Position numbers and translations under genes: made by a program. 64,000 nt of DNA from Bdellovibrionia bacterium (GTDB taxonomy: Bacteria > Bdellovibrionota > Bdellovibrionia > Bdellovibrionales > JAUICD01). Of this stretch, positions 51,847 to 63,105 are shown in pieces (the stretch's first letter is position 1; every line of letters starts with the position of its first letter). The notes under the pieces are model-generated. The model was not told where the DNA came from and ran no database searches. It saw nothing but the letters and a program-made list of their open reading frames with translations. Location: contig JAUICD010000006.1 in assembly GCA_030427965.1 (NCBI GenBank), positions 6,769-70,768 on the forward strand, written 5' to 3'.

Positions 51847-53687
51847 TGGAGAAGAATTTTTGGTCGCTATTTTGGACGCAGTTCTTTGGTGCATTAAACG
51901 ACAACTACATTAAAAATGCACTTGTCATTCTCATAACCTTTCGTAACGCTCAAGTGCTTGGACTTGATGCAGCTTCGATTGTTGCGCTTTCAGGGGGGAT
52001 CTTCATTCTTCCTTTCTTTTTGTTTTCAGCAACAGCTGGGCAACTTGCAGATAAATACGAGAAAACTCAACTGATCAAATATATTAAGATTGCAGAAATT
52101 GTGATTATGGCAGTGGCTGCTATAGGGTTTATTCTCAATAGTTGGGGATTTTTATTGATCACGCTCTTTTTGATGGGTTTGCAGTCAAGTTTTTTTGGAC
52201 CGATTAAATATGGAATTATTCCCAACCTCGTAAGTCGACAGGAACTGACTCGAGGAAACGCCTATGTGGAAATGGGGACATTTCTTGCAATACTTATTGG
52301 AACGATCTTGGGAGGACTTTCCGCGGCTTCGTCTTCTGCTACAGCACTTGTTATCGTTGGGATTTTAGGTTTTGCCATTGTGGGATTTGTGACAAGTCTT
52401 TTTCTAGATAAGGTCCCGGTGGGTGATGCAAACATTCGGGTGGAATTCAATCCAGTGACACCAACTGTTCGAATCTTGAAATACGCGCTTCTAAATCGTT
52501 CTATTTTTAATTCAATATTGGGGATATCGTGGTTTTGGTTTTTGGGAGCCATCATACTGAGTATTTTACCAACTTATGTGAAAAGCTTCTTGGGAGGTGA
52601 TGAAACAGTCGTTACGACTTTGCTTGCAATGTTCACCGTAGGAATTGGTGTCGGCTCTGTTCTCTGTGAAAAACTCTCATTTGAAAGAGTTGAGATTGGC
52701 TTAGTGCCAATTGGTTCTCTTGGTATGTCGCTATTTCTTGCAGATCTTTATTTTTTAAGCCCCACATGGAGTACGGAGTTACTTCTACCTATAAATGAAA
52801 TGTTAAAGCATGGGGTCTTTCTCAGGTTACTTGTGGATTTTTTAGGGTTTTCTATATTTGGTGGATTCTTTATTGTCCCACTCTATGCTTTGGTTCAAGA
52901 GAGAAGTCCTGCAGATAAGATATCTCGAATTATTGCCGCCAATAATATTGTGAATGCATTTATGATGGTAATTGCAGCTGGACTTTTAATGGGAATGTAC
53001 CAAATAGGACTAACTTTTCCTCAAATTTTATTAAGTGTTGCTGTCGTCAACCTTTTGGTTGCGGTGTACATTTATACGATTGTGCCTGAGTTTGCGTTGA
53101 GATTTATCTCATGGATGCTTGTCAATGTTATCTATCGATTGAAAATCCAAGGACTAGAAAACATTCCTCGTGAAGGTCCTGTAATTCTGGCCTGTAATCA
53201 TGTTACATACATTGACTGGCTAATTGTTGCAGGAGCATGCAAGCGACCTCCAAGGTTTGTGATGTATTATAAATTTGGAAATATTCCGATTATCAAAAAA
53301 ATGATGAAGCAGGCGAAGGTGATTTTGATTGCAGGGAAAAATGAAGATCCTAAAATTCTAAATCGTGCATATGAGAAGATTTCCAATGAATTGAAGAATG
53401 GAGAAGTGATTTGTCTTTTCCCGGAGGGGGAACTCACACATAATGGAGAAATGGGAGCATTTCGACCAGGGATTGAAAGAATCTTAGAGCGAGACCCAGT
53501 GCCAGTTGTTCCGATAACTCTAAACGGTTTGTGGGGAAGTTTTTTTTCAAGAAAAGGTGGCGTCCCCTTTACAAAAGTTCCTAAAAGGTTTTGGTCTCGG
53601 GTGAGTCTTGTGATTGGAAGACCTGTTGCTCCTGAGAGTGCCACAGCTGAGTCACTAGAGAAGTTAGTGAAGAGTCAGTTGGATTGA
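51843..53687 (+). CDS. MFS lysophospholipid transporter (LplT-like) fused to a PlsC-type acyltransferase
   Basis: 614 aa. About 12 TM segments make up an MFS N-terminal part. The C-terminal domain has HX4D (CNHVTYIDW) and FPEGELT motifs. ATGA overlap with the NUDIX gene. Confidence 0.75.
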   Translation: MMEKNFWSLFWTQFFGALNDNYIKNALVILITFRNAQVLGLDAASIVALSGGIFILPFFLFSATAGQLADKYEKTQLIKYIKIAEIVIMAVAAIGFILNSWGFLLITLFLMGLQSSFFGPIKYGIIPNLVSRQELTRGNAYVEMGTFLAILIGTILGGLSAASSSATALVIVGILGFAIVGFVTSLFLDKVPVGDANIRVEFNPVTPTVRILKYALLNRSIFNSILGISWFWFLGAIILSILPTYVKSFLGGDETVVTTLLAMFTVGIGVGSVLCEKLSFERVEIGLVPIGSLGMSLFLADLYFLSPTWSTELLLPINEMLKHGVFLRLLVDFLGFSIFGGFFIVPLYALVQERSPADKISRIIAANNIVNAFMMVIAAGLLMGMYQIGLTFPQILLSVAVVNLLVAVYIYTIVPEFALRFISWMLVNVIYRLKIQGLENIPREGPVILACNHVTYIDWLIVAGACKRPPRFVMYYKFGNIPIIKKMMKQAKVILIAGKNEDPKILNRAYEKISNELKNGEVICLFPEGELTHNGEMGAFRPGIERILERDPVPVVPITLNGLWGSFFSRKGGVPFTKVPKRFWSRVSLVIGRPVAPESATAESLEKLVKSQLD

Positions 53688-54616
53688 TCAGATGCTTTAT
53701 TTAAAATTTCAAGAAGTTCTTCATTGTCATGCTTTCTTGAAACTGTAATGGTTCCAATGAATTTTCCGGTTTTATCCTTGAGAGCAGAGGAGACAAGCTC
53801 AACCTTTATGGTTTCTCCTTTACTTGTTTTCATAGTCGTGTATATAGGGCGATGAAACCCATCTTGTATAACTCTTTTCAAACCTTCTTGTGCGTTCTGA
53901 TGATGGACGGGGTCATAGAGTTTTAAAAAGCTTTCTCCAATCAAATCTCCATTTGAGTAGCCAAGAATCTGATGGAGTCTATTGTTGGCCATGATGATAT
54001 TCCCCTTTTCATCAATGGAATGCATCATGCTTGGGGTTTCCATAAAAAGAGTTTCATATTTTTGAACAAGGTCACGAAGTCCTTCATTTTGATCTTCTAG
54101 TTTGCTGAGTTTCTCCATGTACTCTTTGACTTTGCTTGTAAGAGCCCTTGATTCAGTGCGATCTCCAACAAGGTATCTAAGTAGATCTTTGGGGCTTAGA
54201 ATTCCCACAATCTCTCCAAACTCAGATTCGACCATGACCCGATTGGATTGTGACTGAACCATTGCCTTAAAGACTTCTTGTATTTGAGCATTCTCTTTGA
54301 CCCAAGTTATTGGAAGGAGTGATTCCTCATAATCTTTGAGCATTTCGTCTCCAAGACCTCTGGAACGAGATGCGAGAACCATTTTGACCAAGATTATGTC
54401 AGAAAGCAGCCCAAGTACTTTTCCTGATTTCTTAGAAACTGGTGCTGATGTAATGCCAGCTTCAATAAAGAGGTTTAATGCATTTTCAATCAGCATCTCG
54501 TCTGAAAGGATTGTTGGATCCTTAGTCATCATCTCATCAGCTGTACAAAAGGAACTCATTTCACCCCGCTCAATAAATATCCATTTAAAGGATTGTTGTA
54601 GTTTCTCTCGTGACAA
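53675..54616 (-). CDS. CBS-pair plus PAS domain protein (no output domain)
   Basis: 313 aa. Two CBS-like repeats (MTKDPTILSDE...APVS...GKVLGLLSDIILV and ...NRVMVESEFGEIVGILSPKDLLRYL), a coiled-coil linker, then PAS (PSMMHSIDEKGNIIMANNRLHQILGYS..DLIGESF). TTG start; ATG 54559 is an alternative. Confidence 0.6.
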   Translation of the reverse strand: MSREKLQQSFKWIFIERGEMSSFCTADEMMTKDPTILSDEMLIENALNLFIEAGITSAPVSKKSGKVLGLLSDIILVKMVLASRSRGLGDEMLKDYEESLLPITWVKENAQIQEVFKAMVQSQSNRVMVESEFGEIVGILSPKDLLRYLVGDRTESRALTSKVKEYMEKLSKLEDQNEGLRDLVQKYETLFMETPSMMHSIDEKGNIIMANNRLHQILGYSNGDLIGESFLKLYDPVHHQNAQEGLKRVIQDGFHRPIYTTMKTSKGETIKVELVSSALKDKTGKFIGTITVSRKHDNEELLEILNKASDQSN

Positions 54617-55254: not shown

Positions 55255-56535
55255 ATGCTCGCCATTCCAAATGTGATTAGTTTTGTACTACTACTTTTTG
55301 CTGTTTATTTTGCGCGAAAGAGAAATATTCGTGCTCACAAGTTCATGGTCTTTTTGACCATGATAACTTCCTTTGTTCTTGTTTACATGTTTGCGGAAAT
55401 GAGGCTTCAGGGAGGTTCGCTTGTCGATAAAGAACGACTTGCGAGTTTTTCAATCTGGTTTAAGTTTTTTTTGGGTTCTCACATTCTTGCGGCAACGGTG
55501 ACTTTTTTGATTTCAATCATAGTTGTTACTCTTGGTTTGTGCCAGAATAGAAAAGTTTGGCACAAAAGAGTCGCCTATCTACTTGTTCCAATTTGGGCTT
55601 ACTCTGCAATATCAGGTGTTGCAGTCTATGTTATGGTGGGAAGTCCTGATGAATCTCCGACGGTTTTAGAAAGCCTTGTTTCGCCTCGTGATCTAGGTGA
55701 ATTTGAACTTCAGTCAAACAGTCGCGGGAGTTTTACTCATGAAAACCTCAAAGGGAAATGGTCTTTGCTCACATTTGGCTACACGTTCTGCCCAGATATT
55801 TGTCCAATGACTCTTTCAGATCTCAATCAAGTGACAAGAGGGATTCAAGAGTCGTTGCAGGTTCTTTTTATCACAGCAGATCCAAAACGAGATAAGGCCG
55901 ATCTTCTTGAAAAGTACGTTCGGCAATTCAATTCCGAATTTATGGATTTGAGAAGTGAGAGTTCTGTTGAGGAAATTTTAAGTCATAGACTTGGTGCTAA
56001 GATTGTTTTGGAGGAGAACTTTAAAAGTGAACATTACTCTGTCTTTCATCCGACGGGTGTTTATCTGATTGCTCCTGATGGAAAGGTGTTGGGGTTTTAT
56101 AGACATCCAATAGATGTTAAAAAAACACGAGATGATTTAAAGCATATTATTGCAGAGTATGGAAAACATTTTGAAGTCAGAGATTTGAAAGTGATAGAAC
56201 CAATAAAAGGTGCGAGTGTTACCGCAGCATATGCAAATTTTTACAATAATTCACAATTTCCGATGCAGATAGTTGAGATTAGAAGTCCGAGTTTTAAAAG
56301 TGTCGAAATGCATAATACTGTTGAGCGTGATGGGACTATAGGAATGACAAAACAGCCCATTTTAAACATTCCACCAATGTCTTCTGTGACATTTAGCCCC
56401 GGGGGGCTGCACTTGATGCTCTTTGAACCTCTGAATTTGATTAAAATTAAGAATAAAGTCGAATTTCAGTTCTTAACTGGGGATGGGTTTCTTTTTCACT
56501 CGACTGCGACAGTCATCGATCGCACCGACCTTTGA
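55255..56535 (+). CDS. triple-domain copper/oxidase-assembly protein: DUF420 (CtaM-like) membrane domain + Sco1/SenC thioredoxin-like domain + PCu(A)C copper chaperone domain
   Basis: 426 aa. The N-terminal 4-TM part has DUF420-like spacing (RAHKFMV..., GSHILAA..., WHKRVAYLLVPIWAYSAISGVAVYVMV). The middle has the Sco motif FGYTFCPDICP and HPTGVYLIAPDG. The C-terminal has PCuAC-type VEMHNTVERDGTIGMTKQ ... GGLHLMLF (H..M ... HxM). Confidence 0.7.
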   Translation: MLAIPNVISFVLLLFAVYFARKRNIRAHKFMVFLTMITSFVLVYMFAEMRLQGGSLVDKERLASFSIWFKFFLGSHILAATVTFLISIIVVTLGLCQNRKVWHKRVAYLLVPIWAYSAISGVAVYVMVGSPDESPTVLESLVSPRDLGEFELQSNSRGSFTHENLKGKWSLLTFGYTFCPDICPMTLSDLNQVTRGIQESLQVLFITADPKRDKADLLEKYVRQFNSEFMDLRSESSVEEILSHRLGAKIVLEENFKSEHYSVFHPTGVYLIAPDGKVLGFYRHPIDVKKTRDDLKHIIAEYGKHFEVRDLKVIEPIKGASVTAAYANFYNNSQFPMQIVEIRSPSFKSVEMHNTVERDGTIGMTKQPILNIPPMSSVTFSPGGLHLMLFEPLNLIKIKNKVEFQFLTGDGFLFHSTATVIDRTDL

Positions 56536-56643: not shown

Positions 56644-56790
56644 ATGAGTGATGGTCGAAAACCTTTTCTACAGAAGTTGTTAGAAAGTCCCTTTTTACTT
56701 CTTTTGGCAGGAATACTAGTTATGTTCGTTTTTTACACAGGTTGGGGGATTTTTGAGATGCTCTCACTACCCCAAGCAACATTGCCATAG
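56644..56790 (+). CDS. unannotated 48-aa single-TM peptide (candidate small oxidase subunit, ba3 subunit IIa-like position)
   Basis: Below the ORF-track length cut-off. The ATG is preceded by GGAGG (5 nt). Translation is MSDGRKPFLQKLLESPFLLLLAGILVMFVFYTGWGIFEMLSLPQATLP. Its stop lies 14 nt before the subunit II start. Confidence 0.5.
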   Translation: MSDGRKPFLQKLLESPFLLLLAGILVMFVFYTGWGIFEMLSLPQATLP

Positions 56791-56804: not shown

Positions 56805-57362
56805 ATGAAAGAAGATTTGCACTCAAGTTTAGTATCGCCAAAGGGCAATTGGTGGCTTCCGATTGGTAAGCAAGAGAAGAAGTGGGTCACGATTGCTTTT
56901 GTTTGGTGTATGATTTTATTTTTTATGATGCCATTTTGGCATATCAAAGGTGGACAAAACCCATCTGGGATTCGATCAAAAGTAGAAGCTTCTGCTTTCC
57001 AAGCTCGAGTTGATCAGTTTATTCAAGACTATCAAGTCGGTGAAGAAAAGGGGATTCCAGTTGTTGCTCCTCCAGCAGGTAGTCATATTTATATGGCGGG
57101 CCGAATGTGGAGTTGGTATCCGGTTTTGAAACTTCAAAAAGGAGCGGAGTACACGCTTCACCTTTCTTCTCTTGATGTGAATCACGGGTTTAGTTTGCAC
57201 CCCGTGAATGTCAACTTTCAAGTCGTACCGGGGTATGATTACGGTTTAAAAATTGTACCTAATACAACTGGTGACTTTAAAATTCTCTGCAATGAGTTTT
57301 GCGGTGTTGGCCATCACTTAATGGTGGGTAAGGTTATTGTTGAGGAGGCTGCAGATGAGTAG
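56805..57362 (+). CDS. heme-copper oxidase subunit II (single TM + CuA cupredoxin domain, no cytochrome c domain)
   Basis: 185 aa with one TM (WVTIAFVWCMILFFMMPFW). CuA ligand set DVNHGFS ... CNEFCGVGHHLM (H, CxxxCxxxHxxM). GGGAGAG upstream of the ATG. Confidence 0.85.
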   Translation: MKEDLHSSLVSPKGNWWLPIGKQEKKWVTIAFVWCMILFFMMPFWHIKGGQNPSGIRSKVEASAFQARVDQFIQDYQVGEEKGIPVVAPPAGSHIYMAGRMWSWYPVLKLQKGAEYTLHLSSLDVNHGFSLHPVNVNFQVVPGYDYGLKIVPNTTGDFKILCNEFCGVGHHLMVGKVIVEEAADE

Positions 57363-59088
57363 CATGGTTTCAAGTCTAGCAAATCAATTTCGAACGTGTG
57401 GGGTCACGGGGCTCAAAGTCGATCGAACGGCTGAAAACTTAATCAAAATCAATGCTGTCGTAGCAGTGGTCTGTCTTCTTATTGGTGTTCTTGCTGCTAT
57501 TGGGTTGGTTTTGACTCGTTGGCAGGCTGTTCACTTGCTTGATCCAGTGATGTTTTATCGGTTTTTGACGGCTCATGGTCTTAATATGTTGATTTTCTTT
57601 ATCATATTTTTCGAAATGGCTGTTTTGTATTTTGCTGGGCCCGTGATGTTGTCGTGTCGATTGCCTGCACCTAAATTGGGATGGACATCGTTTATTCTCA
57701 TGCTTTTAGGAATGATCATTGTGAACTATACAGTGGCTGTTGGGCAAGCCGATGTTCTTTTCACTTCGTATCCCCCACTTAAAGCACACCCACTTTATTA
57801 TTTAGGAATCATTTTATTTGCAGTGGGTGCATTGATAGTGTGTGGGCTTTTCTTTGCGACCCTGGTGGTTGCAAAGAAAGAGAAAACGTATGAAGGACAA
57901 ATTCCTTTGGTTACCTTTGGAGGGCTAACTGCAGCAATTATTGCGGTGATCACTCTTCTTCATGGTGCTGCGATTTACATTCCCACTTTTTTGTGGTCAT
58001 TGGATTTGATGGCAATGGACCCTCAGCTTTATCGTTTGATCTTTTGGGGTTTGGGACATTCATCGCAACAGATCAATGTTGCTGCGATGGTTTCCATTTG
58101 GTATCTCCTTGCTGCGCTCACTGTTGGGGGAGTGGTTCTAAATGAAAAGGTCAGTCGAATGGCCTTTGTCCTTTATATTTTGTTTATTTCAATGGCCTCA
58201 GCTCATCACCTTTTGGTGGACCCAGGATTTGGTGCGGCTTGGAAGGTGTGGAACACGAGCTATGCGATGTATCTTGCCGTTCTTGCAAGTATGATTCATG
58301 GATTTACAGTTCCAGCTGGTATTGAAATGGGACAGAGGTTGAATGGATTCACAAAGGGAGTTTTTGGATGGTTGAAAAATGCTCCATGGAGTGATCCAGG
58401 GTTTTCTGGAATGGTTCTTTCTGTTGTGATCTTTGGTTTCATGGGTGGTATTACTGGTGTGACAATCGGTACTGAGCAGATCAATATTCTTGCCCACAAT
58501 ACTCTTCGTATACCCGGACACTTTCATGTGACTGTTGTTGGAGGAACTGCGCTCGCATTCATGGCTGTAACTTACTATGTTTTGCCTTTGATTTTTCAAA
58601 AACGAGTGGCGTTCTGGGGACTTGCAAAAATTCAACCCTATATATTTGCTGGGGGTATTTCAGTGATGGGTATGGCAATGACCTTTCAAGGTATTTTTGG
58701 CGTACCAAGAAGACACTTTGATATCACAAGTGCTGGGGCTCCATTTTCACCTGAATTTCATCCTGCCGTGAACCTTCTTCAGGCTGTTATGGGAGTGGCT
58801 GGCCTTGTTGCAGCTGTTGGTGTATTGGCATTTATTGCCATAGCTGTTGTAACTGTATTTTTTGGCAAGAAGATGACAGCTTCAGATATTGAGGCAAAAG
58901 CTTCTGGTATACCACAAGGTGTGCTTCGTTTACCAAAGCAGCAATATACAGCAAGTGAAGTTGAGGCTGTTCACAATGCTGGTGGAGCAAGGGGAACTAT
59001 GGTTCTTGTTGGTATTTTTCTTGTGTGTTTTGTGGCTTACTATTTTGTAAACTGGAAAATGTTGTCTTTCTTGTGGAAGATTGGGTAG
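57355..59088 (+). CDS. heme-copper oxidoreductase subunit I (B-family-like, active-site Tyr absent)
   Basis: ATG 57355 is preceded by GAGGAGG and overlaps the subunit II stop by 8 nt. His ligands: LTAHGLNML (helix II), FWGLGHSSQQ (helix VI), MASAHHLLVD (helix VII) and IPGHFHVTVVGG (helix X). Polytopic throughout, with an extra C-terminal TM. Confidence 0.85.
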   Translation: MSSMVSSLANQFRTCGVTGLKVDRTAENLIKINAVVAVVCLLIGVLAAIGLVLTRWQAVHLLDPVMFYRFLTAHGLNMLIFFIIFFEMAVLYFAGPVMLSCRLPAPKLGWTSFILMLLGMIIVNYTVAVGQADVLFTSYPPLKAHPLYYLGIILFAVGALIVCGLFFATLVVAKKEKTYEGQIPLVTFGGLTAAIIAVITLLHGAAIYIPTFLWSLDLMAMDPQLYRLIFWGLGHSSQQINVAAMVSIWYLLAALTVGGVVLNEKVSRMAFVLYILFISMASAHHLLVDPGFGAAWKVWNTSYAMYLAVLASMIHGFTVPAGIEMGQRLNGFTKGVFGWLKNAPWSDPGFSGMVLSVVIFGFMGGITGVTIGTEQINILAHNTLRIPGHFHVTVVGGTALAFMAVTYYVLPLIFQKRVAFWGLAKIQPYIFAGGISVMGMAMTFQGIFGVPRRHFDITSAGAPFSPEFHPAVNLLQAVMGVAGLVAAVGVLAFIAIAVVTVFFGKKMTASDIEAKASGIPQGVLRLPKQQYTASEVEAVHNAGGARGTMVLVGIFLVCFVAYYFVNWKMLSFLWKIG

Positions 59089-59120
59089 AGAATTTGAATC
59101 AAAATTCATTTCAAGGACCG

Positions 59121-59993
59121 ATGAATAAATCGGTCCTTTTTCTTTTCTTTTTATGGATCTTTGCCACCTGCTTTTGGTGGGGCTTTGCTTTTTTAAAACT
59201 TCCTGGGCCGACACCAGAGTGGCTGCTTGAGGCACAAGTGGTGTGTTTTGGAGAGACAGCGACAGGGTTACCTGATGCAGATGGGTGGCGAGCTCTTGTT
59301 TTTCCACCTCTTTTTATGATTGTAAGCTTGGTCTTTGTTTTTTTTCAAGATCTCAAGACTTCGCTAGAAACCTTGCTGCACTCAAATTTTGGAAGAGTGG
59401 CCGCTATTACTATAGTCGGTCTTATTGCAATAGAGGGAGCTCTTATTGTTCGTACGGTGGTGAATCGCTGGCCAATATCTGAGAACACAGTTGCAAATTC
59501 AGTCAATTTGCCCTTGAGGTACCCTAAAACTGAAATTAAAATTGAGGATTTTGATTTGATCAATCAGAATGAGTCAAAATTTGGGTTAAAGGATTTAAAA
59601 GGGAAGAAGTCAGTTTTGACTTTCGCATTTGCTAACTGTGACTCGATTTGTCCACTTGTTGTTAAAAACTGTGTTGAAGCAGTGAGAGAATTTGAAGAAA
59701 AAGACTTTCAGCTTGTGATTGTTACCTTAGACCCCTGGAGAGATTCTCCGAGTCGTCTTCGAGCGGCAATCAAAATGTGGGAGGCTACGGACAACACCCA
59801 TTTCTTGAGTGGAGAAGTGAAGCAGGTTGAGGAAGTACTAAAGAGTTTTAATGTGGCTTATGATCGAAACGAGAAAACGGGATTTATTTCTCATCCGGGA
59901 CTCGTGTATGTTGTGAATGAGGATGGAAGAATCTCTTACAGTTTTAATAACCCAAGTCGCCAGTGGCTTAAGGATGCGTTGAATAGGTTATGA
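59121..59993 (+). CDS. membrane-anchored Sco1/SenC-family copper chaperone/thiol-disulfide protein
   Basis: ATG 59121 is preceded by AAGGA. Hydrophobic segments (VLFLFFLWIFATCFWWGFAFL and others) precede a thioredoxin-like domain. That domain has LTFAFANCDSICP (CxxxC) and SHPGLVYVVNEDG. Confidence 0.75.
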   Translation: MNKSVLFLFFLWIFATCFWWGFAFLKLPGPTPEWLLEAQVVCFGETATGLPDADGWRALVFPPLFMIVSLVFVFFQDLKTSLETLLHSNFGRVAAITIVGLIAIEGALIVRTVVNRWPISENTVANSVNLPLRYPKTEIKIEDFDLINQNESKFGLKDLKGKKSVLTFAFANCDSICPLVVKNCVEAVREFEEKDFQLVIVTLDPWRDSPSRLRAAIKMWEATDNTHFLSGEVKQVEEVLKSFNVAYDRNEKTGFISHPGLVYVVNEDGRISYSFNNPSRQWLKDALNRL

Positions 59994-61369
59994 TTATAGA
60001 TTTATTGAAAACTCCAATTGCGTACATAGACCGTCTCTTTGTTTGGATTTATGGAACAAAGTTAAACCCTCTTCAGAGATCAGGAGCACTAACAGTAGGG
60101 ATTTTAATTTCCGTAATTGTATCTGGAACCTACTTACTTTTTTTCTATAGTGTGGGGGACCCTCATGGTTCTCTGATTGAAATTGAAAATCAATGGTATC
60201 TTGGTAAATGGATCCGCAGTTTTCACCGATATGCTTCAGATTTGGCTGTGTTGGTTGTGATTTACCACTCACTTTCTATGCTTGTTCAGAGAAGGTCTTG
60301 GGGACCAAGGACGTTGGCTTGGTTGAGTGGAACATTTCTTATGTGTTCACTGTTTATTTCAGGCTGGACTGGGTTTGTGATGGTTTGGGATGCTCACGGA
60401 CAAGAAATGGCTCAAGAAGGGGCACGTCTTTTTCAACTTGTTCCTTTCTTACGAGAAGATCTTGTGGCCTCTTTTTCAGGTGAGAACCCAATACCTGGCT
60501 CCTTCTTCTTTATGAATCTCTTTCTTCACGTTGCAGTACCTCTTGGTATGGTGATTGGACTTTGGATTCATATTTCAAAGATGGGGTCTGTTAAGATTTT
60601 TCCAAATTCACTCGTTTTCAAACTTTTAGTGGGATCTCTTATTTTGGCAAGCCTGCTTTTTCCTGCCCCACTTCTTAAAGAAGGGGATCTTGGAGCTATT
60701 GTTGGAACAATTCCATTTGACATATGGTTTGGATTTTTCTTGCCAATAAGCAAGACTCTTTCACCTTTGCTGAGCGTAGGTATTGTGGCTTTTGGACTTC
60801 TAACAATGGTGACCGCTATTTATTGGTCAGCCCCAAAGGACCGAAATGGAAAACTGACTCCTTTGCAGCGTCCTGAATTTCATCCATCGAGCGGGCGGGT
60901 TTACTTTAAGAGTGTTATTGGAAGTTTGTTTTTTTTGGGAATAGTTTTAATGGGAAGCCAAATTCCTATAAAGATGAACGATGCTCAAGCCATTTTACGG
61001 TTGAACTTCAGATTTGCAAACCTGAGAAAAAGAGATTGTCACAAACCTACGACTTTAGAAAAGGGTGATAAGCTTTCTCATATGCAGCTTCAAGAGATTT
61101 GTGTGACAGATCACATTCTATATGGGGTGCGTGTATATGTTGATTCGGAAAAAATTTATGATGAAGTGGTCAGAGATACGAGGTCAGAGCAACATAAATT
61201 TCGTCTCAATATGGACTACGATCTCAAGCCAGGAGAGCATGCGATTGATATTGAGATTGTCGCAAAAAATGAAGCGGGCGAAACTCTTAATCGCAAGTCG
61301 CTTCATCGTAACTTTGAATTTGAAAAGGGAAGAATTCGGTTGATCAGTTTTGATGGTGGTTTTAAGTAG
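59990..61369 (+). CDS. cytochrome b/b6 N-terminal-domain protein (di-heme) with additional TMs and a ~130-aa C-terminal soluble domain
   Basis: 459 aa. IRSFHRYASDLAVLVVIYHSLSM and FFFMNLFLHVAVPLGMVIGLWIHISK give two His pairs, each 14 residues apart, as in cytochrome b helices B and D. SGWTGFVMVWD resembles the helix C region. ATGA overlap with the Sco gene. Confidence 0.7.
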   Translation: MIIDLLKTPIAYIDRLFVWIYGTKLNPLQRSGALTVGILISVIVSGTYLLFFYSVGDPHGSLIEIENQWYLGKWIRSFHRYASDLAVLVVIYHSLSMLVQRRSWGPRTLAWLSGTFLMCSLFISGWTGFVMVWDAHGQEMAQEGARLFQLVPFLREDLVASFSGENPIPGSFFFMNLFLHVAVPLGMVIGLWIHISKMGSVKIFPNSLVFKLLVGSLILASLLFPAPLLKEGDLGAIVGTIPFDIWFGFFLPISKTLSPLLSVGIVAFGLLTMVTAIYWSAPKDRNGKLTPLQRPEFHPSSGRVYFKSVIGSLFFLGIVLMGSQIPIKMNDAQAILRLNFRFANLRKRDCHKPTTLEKGDKLSHMQLQEICVTDHILYGVRVYVDSEKIYDEVVRDTRSEQHKFRLNMDYDLKPGEHAIDIEIVAKNEAGETLNRKSLHRNFEFEKGRIRLISFDGGFK

Positions 61370-62667
61370 CCCATTTTAGAGAGCAGAACAAAAAACAGAG
61401 CACCACCAAAAAGCGCCATAAGTCCTCCAAAACCCATGACTGCAAGTCCTATGTATTGCTCGGTCTTGTGTAAGAGTTGTTCGTTGCCAAATGTTTTTCT
61501 TCCCAAACCATGAATCCCCGCATATGCAAATCCGATGCAGAAAGTAAATTGCCCGGTACCAAAAATAAGGGGTTGCTTGGAAATCCATTGGGATACGAAA
61601 GAGCTTTGGTTTTGTGGCATAGATTTTTGAATGAGAATGTATGACAAACACATAAAGGCAAGTATCACAGCTCCTGTTGTGGCGTGATAGTGGGCTGGGA
61701 TAAGTGTGTTGGATTCGCGAATTTGTGAACCTAGAAGAAACCCCAGTATGAGCAAAAGAGCACTCGACATAATCCCTGTGAACTCGAGTTCCTTTCCTTC
61801 AAAAGGTTTTTCTGAATTCAAGACTTTATGAATCATGAGTATGAGTACGATTGTAGCACTTGGCCATGTGGCCCATTTCATCAAAAGAGAAAAACCGAAT
61901 TGGTAATTGAGGCTTGTTGTTCCTTCATAAAGGAGTGCTGCTGTAGCTATTGTTGGGACGACAATGAGTGCAAAGAGAGTTCTGGCGACTCTTGCTTCAA
62001 TAAGAGCGCTTCCAGTCATTTGTTTGTATAAAATGAGCCAAACGACAATGAGAAGTGCAATATTGGCCATTTGAAGTATGTGCCCAGGACCCCAAAAGAG
62101 AAGTTCGTAGTAGTTTTTGAGTTCTTGATGAAAGGGGGAGGTGATGAAAGCTCCGATAAAGACCAATATGCTAAGGATATAGAGAAAGGCAGAGGCTTTG
62201 AGTCCGATTGCTGAGCCTATATCGAGCAATTGCTCGTCAGAAAATGTTTGAGATGAAATTTTTGAAAAAAGAACATCGACAATAGATGCGGCCACTCCAA
62301 ACATAAAGGTAGATAGCCCAAAGAGAAACAAGTTCCCATGGATAACAGGTATGTAGTTGGAAAGAACTGGGGTCGTATCACTAGAGAAGGCGCCGATGAT
62401 GAGAAAAACAATTCCAAGTGTTGAGATTCGATAAAAGAGGGGGCGAAATACTTTTTGTGGAAAGAGGTGGCAAAGGGCAGCAAGATTTCCGATAAACCAA
62501 CAGCTAAGTGTTAAGGTGACGTGGACGACGAGGCATTTTTTTGCAAAAACAGGATTCCCGATAATTGCATTTATGCCAGGAGCTCTTCCTAGGATTAGGA
62601 CAATTGAAAACAGCCCCCCTAAAAGAAGGCTAACAATTGAGAGTGACAACCAGTTCATTGTTTTCAT
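61303..62667 (-). CDS. heme-copper-oxidase subunit-I-like polytopic membrane protein, degenerate (CuB His-His pair missing)
   Basis: 454 aa, about 12 TM. By-eye homology to the 57355-59088 product: LLFWGPGHILQMANIAL vs LIFWGLGHSSQQINVAA, and IPAHYHATTGAVILAF vs IPGHFHVTVVGGTALAF. The region aligned to MASAHHLL reads IATAALLY. Confidence 0.5.
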   Translation of the reverse strand: MKTMNWLSLSIVSLLLGGLFSIVLILGRAPGINAIIGNPVFAKKCLVVHVTLTLSCWFIGNLAALCHLFPQKVFRPLFYRISTLGIVFLIIGAFSSDTTPVLSNYIPVIHGNLFLFGLSTFMFGVAASIVDVLFSKISSQTFSDEQLLDIGSAIGLKASAFLYILSILVFIGAFITSPFHQELKNYYELLFWGPGHILQMANIALLIVVWLILYKQMTGSALIEARVARTLFALIVVPTIATAALLYEGTTSLNYQFGFSLLMKWATWPSATIVLILMIHKVLNSEKPFEGKELEFTGIMSSALLLILGFLLGSQIRESNTLIPAHYHATTGAVILAFMCLSYILIQKSMPQNQSSFVSQWISKQPLIFGTGQFTFCIGFAYAGIHGLGRKTFGNEQLLHKTEQYIGLAVMGFGGLMALFGGALFFVLLSKMGYLKPPSKLINRILPFSNSKLR

Positions 62668-63105
62668 ACTTTAAGAAAAATTAGCCCAATTTTGAGATTT
62701 AGAACACCTCTTTTTGTGATTGAATATAAATAGTAAAATTTAAGAATTTTTAATTTGAATTTGGATAAATTCTCAAAACAATTTTGTTAAATATATTGTA
62801 ATAAAACGCTTGGGTTAGAAGGTTTCCTAAAGAACCAACGATTGATCCATAAAAAACACAACAAAGAAGCCATGAAGTTGCAACGAATTTTACCGTGAAG
62901 GCGGATTTGAAGCTTGTGAAAGTTCATCCATATAGATTAGAAAACTTTTCTTCAAACTTGTAAAAATAATACACTCATTTCTCGATCAAATTTTGAACTC
63001 AAAAATTCAAGCTTTGTGAAATTCAAATATACTTGCTAGTGGATAATATATTCATCAAGTGCGTGATAAATTGCGGAGTAGAAAAAATAATGTTATTGCC
63101 AATTT

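Follow-up and report, generated by a model that had tools for sequence, protein, structure and literature searches.

The heme-copper oxidase (HCO) superfamily is recognized by a "histidine sextet," a signature that includes the three histidines of the CuB/FeB (metal-B) site (PMC3475470). The published superfamily synthesis gives these active-site histidines as conserved in every family but gNOR, in which one is changed, and Murali et al. present gNOR as "the first example" of an HCO family that replaces one active-site histidine (PMC11214002). At the position of the cross-linked tyrosine, oxidases have Tyr, the nitric oxide (NO) reductases cNOR and qNOR have Glu, and sNOR/bNOR have Asn (PMC8756737, PMC3475470), while a Gln at this position defines eNOR (PMC8756737). 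eNOR carries heme As in both heme sites, and it has been proposed that much of the NO reduction and N2O production in the environment is due to enzymes of this type. The gene described here lies next to predicted eNOR genes in a 64,000-nucleotide stretch of a Bdellovibrionia bacterium genome (GenBank assembly GCA_030427965.1, contig JAUICD010000006.1, positions 6,769 to 70,768), the whole of which is called the window below. It encodes a homologue of eNOR subunit I, hereafter the paralogue, that keeps the equivalents of the heme ligands and has lost two of the three metal-B histidines.

The closest description of such a protein comes from a 2026 preprint (bioRxiv 10.64898/2026.01.22.701106), with its HCO analysis credited to "J.H.," which names an "eNOR scaffold protein" in Ferrigenium straubiae and describes it as a frequent component of eNOR operons that has no known function. 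The preprint's supplement lists the gene as IMG 2878407321, annotated as "hypothetical protein" and assigned to KEGG K02274 (COX1). The protein was detected in the Ferrigenium proteome, and its transcripts were about 7-fold below those of eNOR subunit I in three denitrifying replicates at 28°C. Literature searches for a described HCO family without the metal-B histidines found nothing beyond this preprint. The available text of Murali et al. 2024 does not mention the paralogue family, and the main text gives no subunit composition for the purified eNOR.

An eNOR subunit I paralogue without the helix VII histidine pair

The paralogue gene and the positions within it that bear on cofactor binding are as follows.

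61303..62667, minus strand: eNOR subunit I paralogue gene, an intact open reading frame (ORF) of 454 amino acids with 12 predicted helices
62521..62523, minus strand: His49 in helix II, equivalent of a low-spin heme axial ligand, invariant in 119 of 119 sequences and aligned with H74 of subunit I
62071..62094, minus strand: helix VI motif WGPGHILQ, with W192, His196 (the sole retained metal-B ligand equivalent), and Gln199; W192, G195, and H196 are invariant and Q199 is 97% conserved
61921..61956, minus strand: helix VII segment PTIATAALLYEG, the place expected for the metal-B His-His pair from alignments to subunit I, with no His
61879..61881, minus strand: Met263 at the periplasmic start of helix VIII, a candidate new ligand, with Met in 100% of the family where subunit I has Ala
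61684..61692, minus strand: His326-Tyr327-His328 in helix X, all invariant and aligned with H389-F390-H391
61495..61500, minus strand: Arg390-Lys391, equivalent of the heme-propionate Arg-Arg pair, invariant and aligned with R452-R453 of subunit I and the RR of the ba3 oxidase

An earlier note, made by a model from the letters of the window, had described the ORF as a polytopic protein and had aligned it by eye with subunit I at helices II, VI, and X. The ORF listing and the 12-helix model agree with the first point, and the motifs that were quoted are all present at verified coordinates (H49 in LVVHVTL, WGPGHILQ at residues 192 to 199, HYH at residues 326 to 328, and the helix VII segment at residues 238 to 249). 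The relationship itself is highly significant by each formal comparison. BLASTP against the neighboring subunit I (57337/57355-59088) gave E=1e-13 and 25% identity over about 470 columns, nearly the full length. A profile of the paralogue family (119 sequences, mean column identity 33%) compared by hhalign with the set of 26 partner subunit I orthologues gave a probability of 99.93% and E=1.6e-35 over 431 columns, and the same family profile run against all Protein Data Bank (PDB) sequences found subunit I of the Thermus ba3 oxidase as its best match, at full length with E of about 1e-11. An AlphaFold2 (AF2) model built on the family alignment showed twelve long helices (pLDDT 93.3, pTM 0.92), and the top 38 Foldseek matches of that model in the PDB were all subunit I chains of HCO or NO reductase enzymes. 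The family profile scored eNOR subunit I at 93 to 148 bits and ba3 at 43 bits, and an eNOR profile scored ba3 at 200 bits and paralogue family members at 46 to 95 bits. These profile scores fit a paralogue family that would be a fast-evolving offshoot of eNOR subunit I.

The window protein itself had no Pfam or NCBIfam match and falls below the Pfam threshold for PF00115, which many of its homologues carry. No curated family covers the paralogue, in keeping with the earlier observation that it belonged to no recognizable named family. The SURF1 profile of Pfam did not match the window protein, and a suggested comparison with NnrS (PF05940) gave no signal, with no Pfam match at E<=1.

BLASTP, hhalign, and a joint MAFFT alignment of the two protein sets all pair H49 with H74, H196 with H235, H326 with H389, H328 with H391, and R390-K391 with R452-R453 (paralogue and subunit I, respectively), so that the histidines matched by eye are the same ones. 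H326 is the equivalent of the proximal ligand of the high-spin heme, H328 is the equivalent of the second low-spin heme ligand, and Tyr327 stands in place of the usual Phe. The same three methods agree that both helix VII CuB ligands are gone, as had been proposed, and the loss extends across the family. The invariant H284-H285 of subunit I lies opposite Ala-Ala in the BLASTP alignment and opposite a gap of 2 to 3 residues in the hhalign and MAFFT alignments. Helix VII of the family instead has two conserved prolines, at consensus positions 238 and 243, and the His pair was absent from it in every family member checked. The family alignment likewise has no conserved Asp at the metal-B position.

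If the protein were an ordinary catalytic oxidase or NO reductase, the His pair would have to have been missed through misalignment. The ten histidines of the window protein (49, 67, 110, 180, 196, 280, 326, 328, 386, and 400) include no HH dipeptide, the few family members with such a dipeptide have it in loops away from helix VII, and no column from 197 to 325 of the family alignment, between helices VI and X, exceeds 18% His. A better alignment therefore cannot recover the pair, and with three alignment methods in agreement the chance that it was overlooked is practically nil; the sequence itself refutes that explanation.

Other residues divide along similar lines. In helix VI, subunit I has the motif GHxSQQ with Q238 and Q239 invariant, the latter being the Gln that is diagnostic of eNOR; at this His+4 position the window protein has Met200, and the family column is 50% Phe. 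Q239, H284, and H285 are thus absent or unconserved in the paralogue family. The helix VIII invariants of subunit I (N300, T301, Y303, Y306, S312, and H315) lie opposite unconserved and mostly apolar family positions, and most of the loop between helices VIII and IX is deleted, with the loss of T318, E324, and R328. The literature places the conserved K-type proton channel of eNOR in the helix VIII region, and from that placement we infer that the lost polar residues are those of the channel. Common to both proteins are the heme ligand equivalents, W192, G195, H196, Q199 (His+3), S302, P324, M339, Q365-P366, and the propionate-binding basic pair. The invariant or nearly invariant residues E188 (Arg in subunit I), T260, M263, Y327 (Phe in subunit I), Q373, K391, E396, and Q397 are specific to the family. 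Nineteen columns are invariant in all 119 sequences (L46, H49, V50, N104, P107, W192, G195, H196, W210, M263, I316, H326, Y327, H328, R390, K391, G414, G415, and G422). The best-conserved parts of the protein are helices II, VI, X, XI, and XII and the periplasmic loops; mean loop conservation is 0.60 on the periplasmic side versus 0.31 on the cytoplasmic side.

The alignments show that the paralogue retains every residue that a bis-His low-spin heme and a His-ligated second heme would be expected to need, and that two of the three FeB/CuB ligands are gone. The invariance of H49, H326, H328, and R390/K391, together with the loss of those two ligands, is consistent with the earlier proposal of a protein that may bind heme but not CuB. 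By inference, the paralogue cannot itself be a binuclear heme/non-heme-metal NO reductase.

A widespread family under relaxed purifying selection

The window gene is a new member of a widespread and conserved family and is not unique to this genome. A public protein of 451 amino acids (P0001) is 100% identical to it and starts at the second Met, following the NCBI gene model. A word-indexed search found 221 family proteins at E<=1e-3, an exhaustive search found at least 273 clusters (50% identity) at E<=1e-30, and the family is present in at least 596 species-representative genomes of many phyla. Carriers include Balneolaceae, Opitutales and Verrucomicrobiota, Myxococcota, Planctomycetota, Calditrichota, Spirochaetia, Gemmatimonadota, Burkholderiaceae, Thiotrichales, and others. 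Members are commonly misannotated as "cytochrome c oxidase subunit I."

Among 59 genomes having all four genes, mean pairwise identity was 38% for the paralogue, 65% for subunit I, 62% for subunit II, and 38% for the neighboring cytochrome b (cyt b)-like protein. The paralogue thus evolves about twice as fast as subunit I, and its rate equals that of the cyt b-like protein. Values of dN/dS, taken from six close pairs, were 0.15 to 0.23 for the paralogue and 0.02 to 0.14 for subunit I. Selection on the paralogue is purifying but relaxed, and the purifying component rules out a pseudogene. The lost catalytic residues, the faster evolution, and the absence of the gene from some eNOR cassettes might otherwise have suggested that the gene is a subunit I duplicate in decay that does nothing itself. 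Such decay is extremely improbable given an intact ORF, the spread across so many species, 19 invariant columns that include all the heme ligand equivalents, the dN/dS values, and a conserved gene position, and a probable homologue was detected in the Ferrigenium proteome; the conservation data effectively refute it.

The eNOR cassette of the window

On the opposite strand, and at lower coordinates than the paralogue, lie the genes of the cassette and its assembly factors.

55255..56535, plus strand: DUF420-SCO1-PCuAC fusion, copper and oxidase assembly factors, upstream of the cassette (Pfam matches)
56644..56790, plus strand: small single-helix ORF of 48 amino acids, directly upstream of subunit II, with homologous small ORFs in the same position in 75 of 92 related loci
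56805..57362, plus strand: predicted eNOR subunit II, a cupredoxin with the CuA ligands CNEFCGVGHHLM (Pfam COX2, NCBIfam CoxB)
57355..59088, plus strand: predicted eNOR subunit I, catalytic (PF00115, 213 bits), with GHSSQQ in helix VI, HH in helix VII, and HFH in helix X
59025..59993, plus strand: membrane-anchored SCO1/SenC copper chaperone (PF02630, E=9.5e-26), conserved in its cassette position
59990..61369, plus strand: cyt b-like membrane protein of 459 amino acids (PF00033), with a conserved C-terminal domain
61303..61369, both strands: 67 nucleotides shared by the 3' ends of the convergent paralogue and cyt b-like genes

The diagnostic Gln of subunit I and the CuA-type subunit II identify the neighboring enzyme as a predicted eNOR-type NO reductase, and Q238, Q239, H284, and H285 are invariant across the 26 orthologues. 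Assignment as sNOR (norSY-senC-orf1) was rejected because sNOR/bNOR have Asn where this protein has Gln, and gNOR, with a His-to-Asp change and no CuA, and nNOR, with a His/Met low-spin heme, were excluded by sequence. The 48-residue ORF is probably an unannotated small subunit of the cassette, and the true start of the SCO1/SenC gene is probably near 59121. The window's cyt b-like protein lacks a module of about 240 residues with Fer4 (4Fe-4S ferredoxin) domains that its homologues of 660 to 700 residues carry between the cyt b and C-terminal domains.

Some further features of the cassette and its surroundings stand apart from these assignments. The gene just upstream of the cassette joins three oxidase and copper assembly modules in one polypeptide, of which the DUF420 part is CtaM-like. 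Farther upstream, at 53675-54616 on the minus strand, is a protein with a CBS pair and a PAS domain and no obvious output domain, which may be a redox or ligand sensor. The conserved C-terminal domain of the cyt b-like protein occurs as a free-standing protein of 167 residues in a Burkholderiaceae locus (L006).

Related loci adjoin nirS, a nirK-like gene fused to cytochrome c, NnrS, and Rrf2 or Crp/Fnr regulators, and these denitrification neighbors fit an NO-reducing role for the cassette. Neither nir nor nos genes were found among the window genes at 42 to 55 kb, which are unrelated housekeeping genes.

The 67-nucleotide overlap had been reported earlier, and the end of the cyt b-like ORF at 61369 confirms it. 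On the paralogue side it covers an unconserved tail (residues 433 to 454) with low pLDDT, and on the other side it covers the conserved end of the C-terminal domain of the cyt b-like protein, conserved to about residue 457. On the simplest reading, the overlap is a by-product of inversion of the paralogue gene, and antisense effects are possible. A promoter and terminator scan around the gene found no promoter signal above background and no terminator-like structure between the two genes. Upstream of the paralogue is an AT-rich intergenic region of about 440 nucleotides (62668-63105) with an inverted repeat, TTGAA-N8-TTCAA, and neither candidate ATG has a Shine-Dalgarno sequence close to it.

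Conserved linkage to eNOR cassettes

Gene order was compared in 80 species-representative loci, 77 of which were scorable.

69 loci: paralogue, ORF of about 48 amino acids, subunit II, and subunit I in this order on one strand, followed in most by SCO1 and the cyt b-like gene (67 scored automatically; L025 and L057 by hand after ORF miscalls)
2 loci: cassette elsewhere in the locus
6 loci: no cassette within about 10 kb on both sides
3 loci: cut by a contig end

An eNOR cassette is therefore linked to the paralogue in 71 of the 77 scorable loci. Co-occurrence with this type of HCO, raised as a question by the earlier note, is accordingly the rule but not a constant, given the 6 loci where no cassette was found. 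Conversely, two eNOR cassettes of the window's own clade (L090 and L093) have no paralogue within 8 to 10 kb. The paralogue is thus common but not obligatory in cis for eNOR cassettes.

Bdellovibrionota and Burkholderiales have their own order, in which subunit II, subunit I, SCO1, and the cyt b-like gene precede the paralogue, often with CtaA after it. In these groups the paralogue often shares a few bases with its neighbors, and it shows translational coupling to the cyt b-like gene and often also to CtaA. The window has this order with the paralogue inverted, tail to tail with the cyt b-like gene. In the Burkholderiaceae locus L006 (2324-4435 and 13532-19105), which has the same layout as the Ferrigenium operon, a cyt b-Fer2-FAD-NAD fusion and two nirS-type genes adjoin the eNOR cassette. 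From annotation and operon layout, and not from sequence, the paralogue family is very probably the one that the preprint named "eNOR scaffold protein." The conserved synteny and this label both fit the earlier suggestion of an accessory or scaffold subunit of the neighboring enzyme, a function that would still be a prediction from sequence and gene order.

In L005 (9377-9874) and in 26 other loci, the paralogue-led eNOR operon is immediately preceded, on the other strand, by a gene for an Rrf2-family regulator (IscR/NsrR-like, with a score that does not assign it to NsrR); none was found in the window. The frequent position of the operon beside Rrf2- or Crp/Fnr-type regulators and denitrification genes would be compatible with a sensor of NO or O2, in which a ligand-binding heme of the old active site reported gas levels, and a five-coordinate heme pocket may be retained, with H326 as its proximal ligand. 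This role, which the earlier note had entertained, is nevertheless very unlikely. It lacks support because neither the window protein nor most of the family was found to have an output or signaling domain; the only recurrent extra domains of the family are TPR (tetratricopeptide repeat), cyt b, and CtaB domains. Dedicated regulators have genes of their own, and the paralogue shows no similarity to NnrS. One locus has a true NnrS as a separate gene, in a cluster that also holds a probable family member (a 468-residue gene after cyt b).

A possible assembly partner or redox protein

Several clues to function come from gene fusions and from neighbors outside the standard cassette. One family protein (P0252) carries a C-terminal heme O synthase domain that passes the TIGR01473 cutoff (250 bits) and is encoded in the eNOR operon of L094. 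Three family clusters have C-terminal TPR fusions, which are cytoplasmic by topology. The heme O synthase gene ctaB lies within 10 kb of the paralogue in 31 loci, and ctaA, for heme A synthase, follows it in several. In one of the loci without eNOR, from a Calditrichota metagenome-assembled genome (L014, 9980-16072), the paralogue is the first gene of an A-type oxidase cluster that continues with SCO1, subunits I (A-type) and III, and a subunit II fused to cytochrome c, so the family is not tied exclusively to eNOR. L094 (954-4875) is also unusual in that the extra C-terminal helix of eNOR subunit I is a separate gene of 48 amino acids, followed by the paralogue-heme O synthase fusion gene.

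Our tentative assignment, made with rather less than even confidence, is that the paralogue has a putative role as a diheme, noncatalytic accessory or biogenesis partner of eNOR. The accessory reading draws on the coupling to CtaB and CtaA, the TPR fusions, the A-type oxidase cluster with SCO1, the dispensability of the gene, its relaxed constraint, and the "scaffold" label. The paralogue would be a heme-loaded, noncatalytic membrane partner of the enzyme, and a biogenesis role seems the likeliest form of this: a scaffold shaped like subunit I might work with the heme O and heme A synthases (CtaB and CtaA) and with cytoplasmic factors. It could supply or position heme As and preassemble the catalytic subunit, and in doing so would be a functional analogue of Surf1 or CbaX. 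The Thermus CbaX is said to have been described, by Werner and colleagues in 2010, as an accessory membrane protein cotranscribed with a heme-a-containing oxidase.

Several observations weigh against this assignment. Both buried heme sites, the Tyr327 between the hemes, and the periplasmic loops are strictly conserved, a pattern that suits a functioning redox protein better than a chaperone. Handing over heme from deeply buried sites would be mechanistically awkward. The CtaB and cyt b fusions could merely reflect gene adjacency, and the match to the Ferrigenium gene 2878407321 comes from annotation and operon layout. A further fusion (P0244) joins an N-terminal cyt b domain to the paralogue, and in two loci a gene for a lipoprotein-type monoheme cytochrome c follows the paralogue with no eNOR within 10 kb (L031, 11351-11905; L042, 7916-8419). 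These pairs suggest a stand-alone two-gene redox module, and together with the cyt b fusion they suggest electron transfer. In other loci a HiPIP (high-potential iron-sulfur protein) or small cytochrome c gene lies directly before the paralogue.

A serious possibility, if short of probable, is that the paralogue is a redox-active diheme membrane cytochrome, either an electron relay to eNOR or an independent heme-only enzyme using periplasmic protons. In one version, the relay would run between the cyt b-like protein (quinol or Fe-S linked), or a periplasmic cytochrome c or HiPIP, and eNOR. The former high-spin heme could be six-coordinate, with His/Met ligation through Met263 or with His196; alternatively, it could have stayed open as a catalytic heme that lacks a second metal. 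Such a role would agree with the invariance or near-invariance of both heme sites, of the propionate Arg/Lys, and of Tyr327, W192, and Q199; with the family-specific, invariant Met263; with periplasmic loops twice as conserved as the cytoplasmic ones; with an evolutionary rate equal to that of the cyt b-like redox protein; with translational coupling to the cyt b-like gene in Bdellovibrionota and Burkholderiales; and with the natural cyt b fusion and the adjacent monoheme cytochrome c or HiPIP genes, some of them without eNOR nearby. However, the paralogue lacks a dedicated subunit II as well as a conserved route for protons from the cytoplasm, and the cytoplasmic TPR fusions and the heme O synthase fusion suit assembly better. 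eNOR cassettes exist without the paralogue, purified eNOR of R. marinus reduces NO with artificial donors, and the Ferrigenium transcripts were well below those of eNOR subunit I.

More specific forms of this idea are improbable: that the paralogue is a single-heme HCO enzyme without a second metal, taking both protons and electrons from the periplasm, or, more mildly, that it is a His/Met six-coordinate diheme wire linking a cyt b/Fe-S module to eNOR in a new supercomplex. The eNOR literature holds a puzzle as to how eNOR-dependent denitrifiers make heme A, whose synthesis depends on O2. If the enzyme version were true, the coupled heme A synthase might receive from the paralogue either reducing power or O2, the latter made for example by NO dismutation, and the provision of O2 or reducing power in this way would resolve the puzzle.

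Whichever role applies, whether assembly scaffold, electron wire, or heme-only enzyme, it bears on how heme As enzymes are built at low oxygen, on how eNOR is wired to the quinone pool, and on how pseudo-catalytic paralogues arise in respiratory complexes. eNOR operons usually carry this second subunit-I-like gene, which is uncharacterized and has been named once. A family of hundreds of clusters that keeps the residues for both hemes and has dropped two active-site histidines stands outside the published superfamily picture, and its misannotation can inflate counts of terminal oxidases and NO reductases in genome surveys.

Comparison with known systems

NnrS, a heme- and copper-containing NO-response protein, resembles the paralogue in being a polytopic membrane heme protein encoded near denitrification genes but has no detectable similarity to it. 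The analogy with the heme a insertion factors Surf1/Shy1 and CbaX is proposed for function only, and there is no relationship of sequence or fold; those proteins are small and have one exposed heme site, whereas the paralogue has a full subunit I scaffold with two predicted heme sites.

Within the superfamily, gNOR and NO dismutase are members that likewise have a modified three-His metal-B site. In gNOR, however, one His is changed to Asp, the enzyme is still predicted to be catalytic, and the cupredoxin lacks CuA. The paralogue family has two histidines removed with no conserved replacement ligand, and subunit II of its cassette has the CuA ligands. Measured against the histidine sextet, the paralogue has the low-spin pair and the high-spin proximal His but not the metal-B triad, of which H196 alone is present. 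The B-family subunit I of the Thermus thermophilus ba3 oxidase is its best sequence match among solved structures, and in structural matching ba3 comes just behind 7deg_A; of the ba3 CuB ligands (H233, H282, and H283), the cross-linked Tyr237, and the K-channel, nothing except the helix VI His is retained.

Of the two relatives compared, eNOR subunit I (Murali et al. 2024, PMC11214002) scores better than ba3. It shares with the paralogue the 12-helix fold, the low- and high-spin heme ligands, the W-x-x-G-H of helix VI, the Gln at His+3, and the propionate basic pair. The paralogue differs in lacking the helix VII His-His, the His+4 Gln, the polar invariants of helix VIII, and most of the VIII-IX loop, and it has about 450 residues versus about 575.

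The Ferrigenium "eNOR scaffold protein" is described in the preprint without residue-level detail, and the paralogue of the window is inverted and convergent with the cyt b-like gene rather than co-directional. Both are COX1-like proteins encoded with an eNOR cassette, and the Ferrigenium hypothetical protein shares its operon with subunits II and I, sco1, cyt b-like proteins, and heme O synthase. That layout matches the one in the Burkholderiaceae locus L006, whose sole second COX1-like gene belongs to the paralogue family.

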